A stretch of 64,000 nt of DNA from Alphaproteobacteria bacterium (GCA_965246755.1 OZ251979.1:385970-449969); one strand, 5' to 3'; shown: positions 42,985 through 45,879, numbered from the stretch's first letter. The notes: generated from the sequence alone by a model not told the origin. Made by a program: numbers and translations.

Positions 42985-43518
42985 ATGAATAAACCACGTT
43001 TTTTGACAGTGACGTCAACCTTAGTGATAATCGGTGCCATCTCGCTGTGCAGCGCCTGCGAAAATATGGGCAATTTTAATTCCGGTGAACGTGCTTATGC
43101 GGCGGCGACCGATCCGATTGCGCTGCGGATTGCCGAGGCGGCGGACAAGGCAGCCGCCGCATTATCCGATCTGTCACGCGTAGAACAGGCCAAACATCCG
43201 GCCGCACCGGTGCCGAACAGTGCCGGCCTGCCAGCAGAACTCGCGATGCCGGTTGACGTGTCGTGGATCGGTAATGCCGAGCCGATTTTACGTGATCTGG
43301 GCGCGCGCATGAATTACCGCGTCACTTCCTTCAATGCACAACCAAAAACGCCGGTAATTGTGCGCTTGGAATATAAAGAACGCCCGATGGTGGATGTCTT
43401 GCGTGACATCGGCGAACAGGCGACTGAGGTTATGGACCTGGTAGTTGATCCGCCCAGCCGCCGCCTCGAAATTCACTATAAAATTGCCAAAACTGACGGG
43501 CCCGGGAAAGCGCGCTAA
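42985..43518 (+). CDS. dotD: DotD/TraH-like lipoprotein
   Basis: Lipobox (AISLCSAC). The C-terminal domain VDVSWIGNAEPILRDLGARMNYRV...PVIVRLEYKERPMVDVLRDIGEQA...LEIHY fits the DotD (secretin-N0-like) family. It lies directly upstream of the DotC and DotB homologs. Confidence 0.7.
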   Translation: MNKPRFLTVTSTLVIIGAISLCSACENMGNFNSGERAYAAATDPIALRIAEAADKAAAALSDLSRVEQAKHPAAPVPNSAGLPAELAMPVDVSWIGNAEPILRDLGARMNYRVTSFNAQPKTPVIVRLEYKERPMVDVLRDIGEQATEVMDLVVDPPSRRLEIHYKIAKTDGPGKAR

Positions 43519-44396
43519 TGCGGTTATGGCTTATTCTATTCGTCGCACTTGGCCTGTCCGGTGCAGCGGCGCGCGCCGAAAACCTGTTAACCGGCGCGGC
43601 CGGTCCCCTGCCGCCGATGAGCCCGGATGAATTGGCCGGGTCGTCAGATACGCCGCCGCCCAGATTAAAAGAACTGCAGACAATTCAAAGCGCGGATGAC
43701 GAAAAACAGGAAGTCGGTTTTCAAATCCGGGTTGAAGCGCAAAAGGAAGCCGCGCTGTCCTACGGTCTGCGCGGCGGCCTGGCGCATCGCACCTATGAAA
43801 TCTCCCAGCGCATCAGCCGTTATGAAGACCCATTATCGCGCCTGTATGATTTTCGCCGTTTGCTGATGGCGGCGCCGGGCGGCGTTTATATCGAGCCGCC
43901 GGTGATTGGCGAACAGCAGGATGCCTTGGTCATTGCCAATAAGGGGCAGAGCGCCGCGCTTGCGGATAATGTGTTAAAAATCACCGCGAACGCCAAGCTG
44001 GTAACGACGGCGCGCGATTGGCGCACCTACTTGCTGCGCGATTGGGGCAAAGTTGATCCGCCGCCTGATGTGCTACTCCCTAAAAATGAAGAAGAGCGTG
44101 TGCAATGGTTCAAATGGATCAAACAGGGCTGGGATGCCGGCATCGCCCAAGGCGATGATATTTTTCAAGAAGACCTGTCCCGACTCAACCGCGATTTCAC
44201 CGGTATGGTCAAATATCGTAAACTGTTGGCTCAGGCGATGGTGACACTGCCGTATGCGATGCTGGTCGATCGCGGCGTCACGGGGGGCGGCATTGAAATG
44301 CGCATCGGCGACCGCGCGGTTGAAATCACCGGCCTGCCTGAATTGCAAAACCAGCCGCGGCAGTGGACGCCAGTGGCGCTACCTAGCGGCCGATGA
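43518..44396 (+). CDS. dotC: DotC/TraI-like periplasmic/outer-membrane protein
   Basis: Signal peptide. The segments YDFRRLLM, RDWRTYLLRDW, LLPKNEEERVQW, GWDAGIAQGDDIFQEDLSRLNRDFTGMVKYRKLLAQAMV and DRGVTGGGIEMRIGDRAVEITGLPELQ closely track the DotC family as I recall it. There is no lipobox Cys, whereas Legionella DotC is a lipoprotein. Confidence 0.75.
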   Translation: MRLWLILFVALGLSGAAARAENLLTGAAGPLPPMSPDELAGSSDTPPPRLKELQTIQSADDEKQEVGFQIRVEAQKEAALSYGLRGGLAHRTYEISQRISRYEDPLSRLYDFRRLLMAAPGGVYIEPPVIGEQQDALVIANKGQSAALADNVLKITANAKLVTTARDWRTYLLRDWGKVDPPPDVLLPKNEEERVQWFKWIKQGWDAGIAQGDDIFQEDLSRLNRDFTGMVKYRKLLAQAMVTLPYAMLVDRGVTGGGIEMRIGDRAVEITGLPELQNQPRQWTPVALPSGR

Positions 44397-45526
44397 CAGT
44401 TTCAGCAGCGGCGACAGACCTTACCTGGCCGGCGGAACCGCAGCGGCTGCATGAAGAGGATATCGATAGCCTGTTGTTGTGGTGTGTGGCTGAGCGTGCC
44501 TCTGACGTCTCAATTCAAACTGATCGTCCGGTGTTTATTGAAGTGGATGGCGAACTGCGGCCCGCGATGCGCCGCCACATTGATGCGGCGGATATGGCGG
44601 CGGTTTTAACCAAACTTTATGGGCCAGAGGCGTCGGCCCAGCTGGCGGCGGGGCACGATCTCGACCTGTCCTATGAGATTCGCCCTGACCGTTTCACGCG
44701 GCACCGTTTTCGGGTCAATATTACCGCGATTTTAAGCCGCGGCCGCGATGCCGCGCAAATTACCATGCGCGCTTTGCCCAATATCCCGCCGTCGATGACG
44801 GATTTGAATATTGAACCACAGATTATCGATAACTGGGCGCCGCGCCAGGGGATTATCCTGGTCACTGGCCCGACCGGCAGCGGGAAATCCACACTGCTGG
44901 CCGCTGGCAATCGCATGATGATTGAACGCCCGGAAGGTTGCGGCAAATTGCTAACCTATGAAGCGCCTATCGAATATGTTTATGACGCGATAACTTCCAA
45001 TCGCTCGCTCGTTGCGCAAACTGAAATTCCGCGGCATTTGCCGACTTTTGCGGCTGGGGTACGCAATGCCTTGCGCCGCAAACCCAATATCATCCTAGTG
45101 GGCGAGGTCAGGGACCGCGAAACGGTGTCAGCGGCAGTTGAAGCCGGGCAAACCGGCCATGCAGTTTATGCAACCGTGCATACCACGGGGGTCGCCGCGA
45201 CCGTACGCCGTGTGATGTCCATGTTTGATTCGTCGGAACGTACCGAGCGCGGTTACGCGCTAATGGAAACGCTGCGCATGATTGTGACCCAAGCCTTGGT
45301 GCCGCGGCCAGACGGTGGCCGAATCGGTATTCGTGAATGGATGGTATTCAGTGATGATGTGCGTGAACGCCTGCTCGACATGGATTCACAAAACTGGGCC
45401 TCTGAAATTCAGCGCCTTGTGCCGCAACATGGCCAGTCGATGACGACCAGCGCCCAGGCGGCGCTTGATGCAGGGCACATCGACAAGCGATGGTTTACGC
45501 TGCTATCAAAATCAGTGGGGCACTAA
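44393..45526 (+). CDS. dotB: DotB/TraJ-like PilT-family hexameric ATPase
   Basis: 377 aa, with ASDVSIQTDRPVFIEV, Walker A GPTGSGKSTLLA, EIPRHLPTFAAGVRNALRRKPNIILVGEVRD and TGHAVYATVHT. It has an ATGA overlap with the dotC-like gene. Confidence 0.85.
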   Translation: MTVSAAATDLTWPAEPQRLHEEDIDSLLLWCVAERASDVSIQTDRPVFIEVDGELRPAMRRHIDAADMAAVLTKLYGPEASAQLAAGHDLDLSYEIRPDRFTRHRFRVNITAILSRGRDAAQITMRALPNIPPSMTDLNIEPQIIDNWAPRQGIILVTGPTGSGKSTLLAAGNRMMIERPEGCGKLLTYEAPIEYVYDAITSNRSLVAQTEIPRHLPTFAAGVRNALRRKPNIILVGEVRDRETVSAAVEAGQTGHAVYATVHTTGVAATVRRVMSMFDSSERTERGYALMETLRMIVTQALVPRPDGGRIGIREWMVFSDDVRERLLDMDSQNWASEIQRLVPQHGQSMTTSAQAALDAGHIDKRWFTLLSKSVGH

Positions 45527-45528
45527 CG

Positions 45529-45879
45529 ATGGATTTACATTGGCGTAACACCATGAAACCAGCGCGTTTTTTCGCGGTTGATGCACGCTCGGCCATCGCT
45601 ATCCTGTTGGTCCTGGTGCATGCGCGTTACTATACTTTTGCCATTGCGATTATTGCGATGGTGGTTTTTTGGATTGTCGAACGGTTGGGCTACCGGTTTG
45701 AAGCGGCGTTGCGCGCGCTCCGCAACTGGTTTGTGGCGCCCGATCGGCCGGCCATTCCGCTTAATTTACGGCGGACCATGACTGATTTATCGCGCCGCCC
45801 ACCGGTTGAGCTAAGTGTCAGCGGCACAAAAGCACGCAAAGTCGACGGACAAGCGGCTGGACAAATGCATCGCAAATAA
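45529..45879 (+). CDS. icmT: IcmT/TraK-like small membrane protein
   Basis: MDLHWRNTMKPARFFAVDARSAIAILLVLVHARYYTF matches the IcmT/TraK signature (HWR..PRFF.vDa...). It follows the dotB-like gene, as traK follows traJ in IncI plasmids. Confidence 0.7.
   Translation: MDLHWRNTMKPARFFAVDARSAIAILLVLVHARYYTFAIAIIAMVVFWIVERLGYRFEAALRALRNWFVAPDRPAIPLNLRRTMTDLSRRPPVELSVSGTKARKVDGQAAGQMHRK

Follow-up and report, generated by a model that had tools for sequence, protein, structure and literature searches.

The four consecutive genes between positions 42985 and 45879 of the window (the whole 64-kb stretch of DNA analysed), all on the + strand, encode members of the DotD, DotC, DotB and IcmT families. 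The DotD/TraH-like protein (42985..43518) begins with a signal sequence and has at its C-terminus an N0-like DotD domain, recognised by Pfam (PF16816, E = 4.3e-25; 88.7 bits, cutoff 27) and matched by the Legionella DotD structures 6x62/3ady (E = 4e-9), while its score against the NCBIfam equivalog NF033882 is 77 bits, under the cutoff of 140. The signal sequence ends in LCSAC, which is likely an atypical lipobox. The second gene (43518..44396) codes for a DotC/TraI-like outer-membrane core component with a Sec signal peptide (PF16932 T4SS_TraI, E = 8.3e-74, 247.8 bits against a cutoff of 26.1); the clade profile matches L. pneumophila DotC (6x62, chain residues 32-265) with an E-value of 1.2e-63, and IncI1 TraI is 31% identical to the window protein. 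The third gene (44393..45526) encodes a DotB/TraJ-like hexameric ATPase of the PilT family, for which TIGR02524 (dot_icm_DotB) is the best NCBIfam model (E = 2.3e-120), with 402 bits, under the 463-bit cutoff, against 242 bits for TraJ and 220 bits for PilT. Among structures, the chain named DotB (6geb) is matched with an E-value of 4e-104 and PilT with 5e-47, and identity to IncI1 TraJ is 32%. The Walker A motif (GPTGSGKS) and the remaining motifs are present, and judging from its sequence the protein is clearly DotB-like, though not an NCBIfam equivalog. The fourth gene codes for the small inner-membrane protein IcmT/TraK (NF038220, 84.5-84.9 bits, above the cutoff of 40; clade HMM, E = 1e-36). 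Its longest ORF starts at 45490, but the ATG at 45529 fits NF038220 better, the model beginning at residue 5 of this form, and the gene is accordingly given as 45529..45879.

All four ORFs are intact, full-length and coupled: dotD and dotC overlap by 1 nt (TAATG), dotC and dotB by 4 nt (ATGA), and the icmT ATG lies 2 nt past the dotB stop. The original prediction had named these genes at these positions, described them as overlapping or adjacent, and likened their order to that of IncI traH-I-J-K; the calls are upheld by the Pfam, NCBIfam and Legionella PDB matches, and comparison with the Legionella and IncI Tra proteins agrees. The order is the same in the IncI1 plasmid NZ_MH422553, in which traH-traI-traJ are followed by a 96-aa IcmT/TraK-like gene; TraH of this R64-type system also has the DotD domain, and TraK scores 38 bits against the IcmT_TraK model. 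DotB and DotC score higher against the Legionella proteins than against IncI1 TraJ and TraI. The Dot/Icm system of Legionella pneumophila comprises the same four families and is likewise chromosomal, with dotD-C-B consecutive (lpp2728-2730), but there icmT (lpp0507) heads a distant icm block, whereas in the window it directly follows dotB, as in IncI plasmids. The host also differs, being here a Micavibrio-like alphaproteobacterium and not a member of the Legionellales, and beyond the four genes no further Dot/Icm gene was seen in the window. The GC content of the module (0.55) is near that of the flanking housekeeping genes, which include lysA, argH and COQ7.

The N-terminus of DotC (MRLWLILFVALGLSGAAARA/EN) is a signal peptide with neither cysteine nor lipobox, whereas Legionella DotC and IncI1 TraI are lipoproteins. 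The lack of a lipobox cysteine had been noticed before, and we find that a lipobox-like motif is missing in 109 of 120 DotC homologues of the clade, so that it is a trait of the clade and not a defect of this locus.

As originally described, the four genes follow a GspF-type platform gene (T2SSF, PF00482) and precede a TcpQ-like gene (PF10671). The latter (45936..47156, + strand) encodes a PilL/TcpQ-like periplasmic protein of 406 aa with a signal peptide and a C-terminal TcpQ/BfpG N0-like domain (PF10671, E = 7.8e-15; clade fam6 HMM, 5e-64), besides a weak STN match (1.7e-4, 21.8 bits, under the 28.4 cutoff). This C-terminal domain, which IncI1 PilL also carries (9e-16), matches chain R of 9u5s, the BfpB-BfpG complex (7e-9), a chain that we infer to be BfpG, the secretin partner (PMC12531336), and it is predicted to bind a secretin. 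The window protein thus has its C-terminal domain in common with the BfpG/TcpQ secretin partners of type IVb pili such as EPEC BfpB-BfpG, but it is about three times longer than proteins of the BfpG/TcpQ type, with a proline/threonine-rich N-terminal half, and is best regarded as a putative secretin partner. It is followed by lysA and argH. Further upstream, a DsbG/DsbC-like periplasmic thiol-disulfide isomerase is encoded (26349..27314, + strand; the true start is probably inside this ORF), with matches to Thioredoxin_2 (E = 2e-8), to DsbG NF008657 (115 bits, under the cutoff of 124) and to the clade fam4 HMM (1.9e-58). These two flanking genes set the operon apart from that of Legionella.

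Between the DsbG-like gene and dotD lies a separate, rare type-IV-filament-like cluster (27405..42937, + strand), which does not belong to the T4BSS and whose genes were identified by Pfam and NCBIfam matches. Its first genes encode a 168-aa protein, a lipoprotein secretin of 675 aa (PF00263, 1.5e-8; MshL-like, 7e-13), and proteins of 272 and 133 aa; they are followed by three giant pilin-like proteins (615, 620 and 977 aa) and a membrane spermidine-synthase-like protein (518 aa), and finally by a PilB/GspE-like ATPase (527 aa; PF00437, 8e-88), a pilin-like protein of 168 aa and the PilC/GspF platform protein (389 aa; PF00482, 4e-17). The pilin-like proteins have a leader of only 2-3 residues, with no G-1 and no E5, and no prepilin peptidase is encoded in the cluster. 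Modelling the 168-aa protein with AlphaFold from a single sequence gave a pLDDT of 44, and the model was unusable.

The genome scan listed 80 related loci, among 305 confirmed relatives, all from Micavibrio-like alphaproteobacteria, some of them labelled Bdellovibrionales. The block of DsbG/DsbC-like, DotD, DotC, DotB, IcmT and TcpQ/PilL-like genes is conserved in chromosomal synteny in more than 80 genomes of this group. When the window proteins were searched by tblastn against 83 loci, many of which end at contig edges, DotC was found in all 83, DotD and DotB in 81 each, IcmT in 66, the DsbG/DsbC-like family in 51 (upstream of DotD where the order could be read) and TcpQ in 45. The common order in the clade is f3, SLT, DsbC, f9, DotD, DotC, DotB, IcmT, TcpQ, and in 28 loci TcpQ is followed by an R64-like thin-pilus set with a lipoprotein secretin (Secretin_N_2), PAP_PilO (2e-30), a PilP-like protein, an ATPase, T2SSF and a prepilin. 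Neither the usual upstream genes f3, SLT and f9 nor this downstream pil set is present in the window. The orthologous block of Micavibrio aeruginosavorus ARL-13 (CP002382, 2,432,547-2,453,392; L002), whose DotC is 54% identical, has f3 and SLT in the interval from the DsbC-like gene to DotD, where the window instead has the 15.5-kb pilus-like cluster.

The pilus-like cluster adjoins dotD in only three of the related loci (L004, L085 and L094), where it sits between the DsbG-like gene and dotD in the subclade of the window. In L093, where the nearest 10 kb contain no dot genes, the cluster is represented by orthologues of PilB (60% identity), PilC (50%) and the secretin (34%), as well as of the giant, 272-aa and 133-aa proteins, and L092 and L095 have the trio of PilB, 16x-aa protein and PilC alone, again without dot genes. 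Conversely, dotDCB occurs without the pilus-like cluster in L084, between dnaKJ and housekeeping genes and with no pilus genes, and in about 75 other loci. The idea that an orphan module was spliced into pilus genes is therefore not supported, since the TcpQ-like and DsbG-like partners are conserved in more than 80 genomes and the pilus cluster is separable. To judge by the relatives, the cluster is an independent machine that is not needed to explain the dot genes, even if it may be co-transcribed with them. IcmT and TcpQ are missing after DotB in L084, L085 and L094; their absence, and the fact that in the three closest relatives (L085, L094 and L004) dotDCB comes immediately after the pilus-like genes in the same orientation, indicate that some remodelling within the subclade is real.

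No other Dot/Icm genes were found in the 64 kb by Pfam scans of nearly all large ORFs or by tblastn with IncI1 TraL-TraW and Micavibrio DotI/DotH/DotG. Specifically, DotO/IcmB/TraU, the VirB4-family ATPase that is the marker defining the MPF-I class, gave no match in the window at E < 0.05 in tblastn with IncI1 TraU and none in Pfam; DotH/IcmK, DotG/IcmE and DotI/IcmL were absent by tblastn and Pfam, and DotA and DotL by Pfam scans alone. The claim of a module without the rest of a T4BSS thus stands within 64 kb, but not as a general reading, as relatives hold DotI, DotH and DotG-like genes at a second locus. In the Micavibrio loci L044, L056 and L066, DotI (PF11393, 1e-60) and DotH (PF12293, 8e-75) begin 6-8 kb downstream, together with a DotG-like gene that has a weak TrbI-domain match (30 bits, under the 35 cutoff), and in M. 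aeruginosavorus ARL-13 DotI lies about 8 kb past IcmT. Complete Dot/Icm-type (pT4SSi) systems have been reported in seven marine Micavibrionales genomes (PMC9418006). In a DotH search, no protein of the present 1,925,773-bp contig was in the best 120 of 448 matches, an absence that is uninformative because most of the family is at least as close to the query as the lineage of the window is. Separation of dotDCB from the remaining machine is normal in this system: in L. pneumophila, dotD-C-B (lpp2728-2730) is far from the genes icmT to icmB (lpp0507-0522) (PMC6761968). The rest of the T4BSS is likely to be encoded elsewhere in this genome.

In our view, the four genes probably make up a dotD-dotC-dotB-icmT operon belonging to a T4BSS of the Dot/Icm type (MPF-I / pT4SSi) that is chromosomally encoded, characteristic of Micavibrio-like alphaproteobacteria and distributed over several separate loci. 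By homology with the Legionella proteins, DotD and DotC would be exported to the periplasm and outer membrane and would join DotH in forming the core complex's outer-membrane cap; DotB would be a cytoplasmic hexameric ATPase of the PilT family docking on the inner-membrane ATPase complex (DotO), and IcmT a small subunit of the inner membrane. The same conserved block would also include the flanking genes, DsbG-like on the upstream and PilL/TcpQ-like on the downstream side, and DotO/IcmB, DotL, DotH, DotG, DotI, DotA and others would be expected elsewhere on the 1.93 Mb chromosome.

A different reading is suggested by the neighbourhood itself. The gap between PilC and DotD, on the same strand, is 47 bp with no convincing terminator, and the arrangement of giants, SpdS-like protein, PilB, pilin-like protein, PilC, DotD, DotC and DotB is kept in L094, L085 and L004, with identities of 68-83% for PilB, PilC, DotC and DotB and lower ones for DotD and the pilin-like protein. 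The subclade might then have lost the remainder of the T4BSS and recruited DotD, DotC and DotB to the adjacent filament system, along with IcmT and TcpQ in this genome. Only a single ATPase, and none for retraction, is encoded in the pilus-like cluster within the window; DotB, as a PilT-family protein, could serve as the second, PilT-like (retraction) ATPase; DotD, through its N0-like domain, and DotC could partner the lipoprotein secretin in the outer membrane, and the TcpQ-like protein could serve as a BfpG-type secretin hoop. In keeping with the last role, secretins of the lipoprotein type are bound by the TcpQ/BfpG domain, and the window encodes just one secretin, the lipoprotein of this cluster. 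The R64-like pil genes found behind TcpQ in other members of the clade are absent here. Against such recruitment, close relatives have one gene set without the other (L092, L093 and L095 the pilus-like genes, L084 dotDCB), DotC, DotD, DotB and IcmT are still typical members of the T4BSS families, and IcmT is not known to have a role outside T4BSSs. Moreover, the clade overall has DotH, DotI and the DotG-like gene, complete pT4SSi systems are reported, and Legionella DotC and DotD act via DotH localisation (PMC6761968). We therefore consider recruitment unlikely, and find it rather improbable that the outcome is a hybrid T4P/T4BSS envelope machine of a reduced-genome subclade, in which a filament system with leaderless giant pilins captured DotD, DotC and DotB (here with IcmT and the BfpG/TcpQ-like protein) after the rest of Dot/Icm was lost.

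That the genes are instead nonfunctional leftovers, either of an integrated IncI-like conjugative element or of a degenerating T4BSS, would agree with the IncI1 traH-I-J-K order, the lack of the rest of the T4BSS in the window, the small genome (1.93 Mb contig) and the absence of IcmT and TcpQ from the locus in close relatives. We regard such decay as very improbable, given that the ORFs are intact, full-length and coupled, with the DotB motifs present, that the DotC and DotB orthologues of relatives are 65-79% identical, which indicates purifying selection, and that the proteins are nearer to Legionella Dot than to IncI1 Tra. The chromosomal synteny conserved over an order-level clade, the host-like GC content and the absence of an adjoining relaxase or integrase also speak against it. 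An IncI-type plasmid or integrative conjugative element was rejected as such: there is no near-identical plasmid DNA, relaxase, oriT, replication and integration genes are not linked to the tra homologues, the flanks are housekeeping genes (SspB, lysA, argH, COQ7, ruvABC), and more than 80 genomes have the synteny on the chromosome. The only integrase nearby adjoins a tRNA at 58.6-60 kb; it is 11 kb distant and belongs to another island, of low GC content, at tRNA-Leu.

As part of a chromosomal Dot/Icm-type T4BSS, the locus is ordinary, representing one more such system of Micavibrio-like alphaproteobacteria. The dotDCB-icmT-pilL block, together with DotI, DotH and the DotG-like gene, has been kept across a largely predatory/epibiotic clade, and because of this conservation a contact-dependent T4BSS is a plausible candidate for prey attack. 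For Pseudomonas putida IsoF, a T4BSS that kills bacteria has been reported (PMC9519443). The linkage of traH-I-J-K homologues to PilL and thin-pilus genes is common to the clade and to IncI plasmids, and bears on how T4BSSs came to be associated with type IVb pili. IncI1 tra genes are linked to PilL with its TcpQ domain, and those of the wider clade to a set like PilN, PilO, PilP, PilQ, PilR and PilS. The arrangement differs, in that the IncI1 pil genes are upstream of traE-K, whereas PilL and the pil set of the clade are downstream of IcmT. The locus in the window departs further from IncI1 in its chromosomal position, in that neither a relaxase nor oriT nor replicon genes were seen, and in having a different pilus-like cluster upstream. 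If the hybrid machine did exist, it would be a rare documented case of type IV pili and type IV secretion exchanging parts of their envelope machines. With its leaderless pilin-like giants, the pilus-like cluster is a more unusual object than the dot locus, and its PilC family has only 44 matches in the protein database.

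The plus strand of positions 42985-45879 holds four ORFs, which family models and PDB matches identify, in every predicted detail, as dotD, dotC, dotB and icmT. DotD (42985-43518, +) matches PF16816 (E 4.3e-25), DotC (43518-44396, +) matches PF16932 (E 8.3e-74), and IcmT/TraK (45490 or 45529 to 45879, +) scores 84.5 bits with NF038220, against a cutoff of 40. DotB (44393-45526, +) reaches 402 bits with TIGR02524, under the cutoff of 463 for this model and above TraJ (242) and PilT (220). The HMM comparison with Legionella proteins that had been suggested as a check gave matches for DotB (PDB 6geb, E 4e-104), DotC (clade profile versus L. 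pneumophila DotC 6x62, E 1.2e-63) and DotD (Legionella DotD structures, E 4e-9), and the PDB sequence search with IcmT gave no meaningful match. The dotD/dotC junction is TAATG, the dotC/dotB junction is ATGA, and an icmT ATG lies 2 nt past the dotB stop, an arrangement that, judged from the sequence, appears operon-like and translationally coupled. A promoter and terminator scan gave nothing convincing between PilC and DotD, nor inside the operon. The GC content of the module (0.55) is like that of the adjoining genes. As predicted, DotC lacks a lipobox cysteine, its N-terminus presenting a signal peptide and no cysteine at all, but this is not special to the locus, a lipobox-like motif being missing from 109 of 120 clade DotC homologs.

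The expected IncI traH-I-J-K order is indeed that of the IncI1 plasmid NZ_MH422553, where traH, traI, traJ and a 96-aa IcmT/TraK-like gene are arranged as in the window. The three genes dotD, dotC and dotB follow one another in L. pneumophila too (lpp2728-2730), as had been stated, and lie far from icmT to icmB (lpp0507-0522) (PMC6761968). The rest of the 64 kb resembles alphaproteobacterial housekeeping sequence (ruvABC, YebC, DUF2336, IalB, SspB, lysA, argH, COQ7, DsbB and a glycosyltransferase block), with the exception of a 15.5-kb pilus-like cluster (27405-42937, +) and a low-GC island at the 3' end, and the contig is 1,925,773 bp long. A tblastn search of the window with IncI1 PilM-PilV and TraE-TraW, and with Micavibrio DotI, DotH and DotG-like proteins, returned only TraI, TraJ and PilQ-like matches, and thus there is no further core gene of the Dot/Icm-type system (T4BSS) within the 64 kb. 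The module therefore stands without the rest of a T4BSS in this stretch, as originally predicted, but this is no oddity, since chromosomal Dot/Icm systems normally have their dotDCB unit set apart from the other genes. With IncI1 TraH, TraK and PilL/N/O/P/R/S, tblastn gave no match in the window; BLAST lacks the sensitivity to detect such proteins, for which profile methods are needed. A known plasmid was rejected, as megablast of the module against plasmids gave no match, and so was an integrated conjugative element, given the housekeeping flanks, the chromosomal synteny and the lack of an adjoining relaxase or integrase.

Micavibrio-like alphaproteobacteria are the source of all the closest DotC proteins (46-71% identity). 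When one genome per species was scanned for relatives, 80 loci were obtained and 305 relatives confirmed; Micavibrio, "Rhodospirillaceae" and alphaproteobacterial MAGs account for all 80, a few of which bear the label Bdellovibrionales. Scanning metagenomes with the window DotC gave only 5 loci, none of the close subclade. The ORFs of the related loci, many of which are cut by contig ends, were called and clustered into families. Using tblastn with the window proteins, DotC was found in 83/83 loci, DotD and DotB in 81/83 each, IcmT in 66/83, a DsbC-like protein in 51/83 and the TcpQ-like protein in 45/83. The recurrent order in the clade is f3, SLT, DsbC-like, f9, DotD, DotC, DotB, IcmT and TcpQ-like, where f3, SLT and f9 are protein families clustered from these loci. 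After the TcpQ-like gene, 28 loci carry a lipoprotein secretin with Secretin_N_2, PAP_PilO (2e-30), a PilP-like protein, an ATPase of ~650 aa, T2SSF and a canonical prepilin, which together constitute an R64-type thin-pilus set.

The flanks of the module are as had been described, with a T2SSF platform gene upstream and, downstream of icmT, a gene (45936-47156, +) whose product weakly matches STN and has a TcpQ domain at its C-terminus. The clade-family HMMs recognise this TcpQ-like protein (5e-64), IcmT (1e-36) and, at 26349-27314, the DsbC-like protein, also called DsbG-like (1.9e-58). The C-terminal TcpQ domain is common to IncI1 PilL and the window protein, which together with the clade synteny indicates that the TcpQ-like gene is the PilL homolog of the conserved block, and not a foreign neighbour of a spliced module. 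In the closest relatives of the window (loci L084, L085 and L094) a PALP (pyridoxal-phosphate enzyme) gene directly follows DotB and no IcmT/TcpQ is found there, so the 3' end of the operon varies within the subclade; in L003 the ORF after DotB encodes 184 aa and matches no family. Many Micavibrio-like genomes have, beside the dot locus, 2-5 paralogues in tandem that encode secreted proteins of ~400-600 aa (families f12, f24 and f7, with no Pfam match), upstream of f3 in L020, L042, L045, L048, L055, L063 and L081, and downstream of IcmT/TcpQ in L038, L044, L056, L066 and L083. These arrays are absent from the window, and their proteins are candidates for T4BSS-linked effectors or surface proteins.

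The PilC-like protein of the pilus-like cluster belongs to a small family, with 44 matches in 5.8 billion proteins, and the cluster adjoins dotD only in the nearest subclade (L004, L085 and L094; PilC 70-74% and DotC 65-68% identity). Elsewhere each gene set occurs alone in relatives. The more distant L095 (PilC 66%) and L092 (PilC 63%) have a trio of PilB, a 16x-aa protein and PilC among housekeeping genes, with no dot genes. The whole system is present in L093 (PilC 50%), with a secretin (34%), a 272-aa protein (38%), a 133-aa protein, giant proteins, PilC and PilB (60%), and there too dot genes are lacking within 10 kb. Conversely, L084 (DotC 68%) has DotD-C-B between dnaKJ and housekeeping genes, without pilus-like genes. 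Long-read contigs of one sample (ERZ26165376), similar in coverage, carry dotDCB alone (L003/L005; 182,699 bp, 10x) and the trio of PilB, a 164-aa protein and PilC alone (L092; 1,794,760 bp, 9x); they are possibly two contigs of one ~2 Mb MAG, in which the two gene sets would be unlinked. The supposed splicing of the dot module into a pilus locus is thus not supported, and the pilus-like cluster is a machine separate from the dot genes. Nor is the cluster a rearranged copy of the R64-like pil set of the clade, an option rejected because the clade HMMs (R64-like PilO, PilP, T2SSF, prepilin, SLT, f3, f9, f7 and f12) gave no match in it; the R64-like pil HMMs detect weak secretin and ATPase similarity and nothing beyond. 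In the simplest history, the pilus-like cluster would have come to separate the DsbG-like gene from dotD in the subclade ancestor, and would have displaced f9 there. The f3 and SLT genes are also missing from the window.

The remaining T4BSS is probably encoded elsewhere in this genome, as suggested by the clade-level evidence and by the intact, conserved state of the four T4BSS-specific genes. M. aeruginosavorus ARL-13 has a DotI/IcmL gene ~8 kb downstream of IcmT, and in L044, L056 and L066 the genes for DotI (PF11393, 1e-60), DotH (PF12293, 8e-75) and a weak TrbI-domain DotG-like protein are consecutive. A protein-database search with the Micavibrio DotH gave 448 family members, mostly from Micavibrio-like MAGs among the 120 matches listed. 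Public annotation already assigns the DotC homologs of the clade to the DotC family, and the system is on record for the Micavibrionales: in seven marine genomes of this order, Needham et al. 2022 (PMC9418006) reported a complete pT4SSi, for which IcmB and 6 or more accessory genes are required and a relaxase must be lacking. This MacSyFinder mention is all that our search of the literature on Micavibrio and T4BSS retrieved, with no dedicated study found. The main rival explanation is that the subclade lost the remaining T4BSS, and that DotD, DotC and DotB were co-opted by the adjoining pilus-like machine. The conserved adjacency of the cluster and dotD would fit such a hybrid, as would the lack of a second ATPase for the cluster within the window and the fact that the locus has lost IcmT and TcpQ in L084, L085 and L094, but the finding of each gene set alone in close relatives speaks against it, and we consider it improbable.

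The roles that we infer for the products of the dot genes follow those of the Legionella proteins. DotC and DotD would be exported and, with DotH, would make the outer-membrane part of the core complex, and IcmT would be a small inner-membrane subunit. DotB would act as a hexameric ATPase of the PilT family, docked on the ATPase complex of the inner membrane. In Legionella, the localisation of DotH requires DotC and DotD (PMC6761968). The PilL/TcpQ-like protein, which has a BfpG-type N0-like domain, probably binds a lipoprotein-type secretin, by analogy with EPEC, where domains of this type assemble into a hoop of 17 on BfpB, a lipoprotein secretin (PMC12531336).

The pilus-like cluster is more unusual than the dot locus. 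It encodes one pilin-like protein of 168 aa and three giant ones (586-977 aa here, and up to 1,336 aa in relatives), all beginning with M-x-x-L-[ILV] followed by a hydrophobic helix, with no G-1/E+5 prepilin signal, and no prepilin peptidase is found in the cluster. The single-sequence AlphaFold2 model of the 168-aa protein was unusable (mean pLDDT 43.7), and a PDB sequence search with the 977-aa protein gave no meaningful match. By sequence, the ATPase has an MshE-type c-di-GMP-binding N-terminal motif, and the lipoprotein secretin is weakly MshL-like. A 518-aa protein (38071-39627, +), whose N-terminal half spans the membrane several times and whose C-terminal domain is spermidine-synthase-like, is kept within the cluster (43% identical in L094), and the local GC content is 0.43, versus ~0.55 around it. 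We take this domain to have a class I (SAM-) methyltransferase fold, and speculate that the protein may replace the N-methylating function of a prepilin peptidase. Within the type IV filament superfamily, the cluster might represent a branch not yet described.

In the remainder of the window, a tRNA-Leu(CAA) (58578-58661) is directly followed by a P4-type integrase (58815-60038), an HTH_17 excisionase-like gene (61081-61518) and a second integrase-like gene (61770-62846). This region (58578-64000; GC 0.42-0.46), which continues past the window end, is a genomic island unrelated to the dot operon, which sits 11 kb upstream. Between argH and a carboxylesterase is a block of large genes (50918-55765) for a GT9-like (490 aa), a GT2-like (437 aa) and an RGP-like (439 aa) protein and an FkbM methyltransferase (352 aa), possibly with a role in surface-glycan synthesis or protein glycosylation. 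Adjoining ruvB, at 335-1933 (-), is a 532-aa protein whose N-terminus has the canonical methylation motif of prepilins (PF07963, 7.8e-6), with a relative in L009, which indicates that the genome also has conventional type IV pilin-like proteins. In the window, the prepilin HMM of the clade matched only an ORF at 338-1942, unrelated to the pilus-like cluster.
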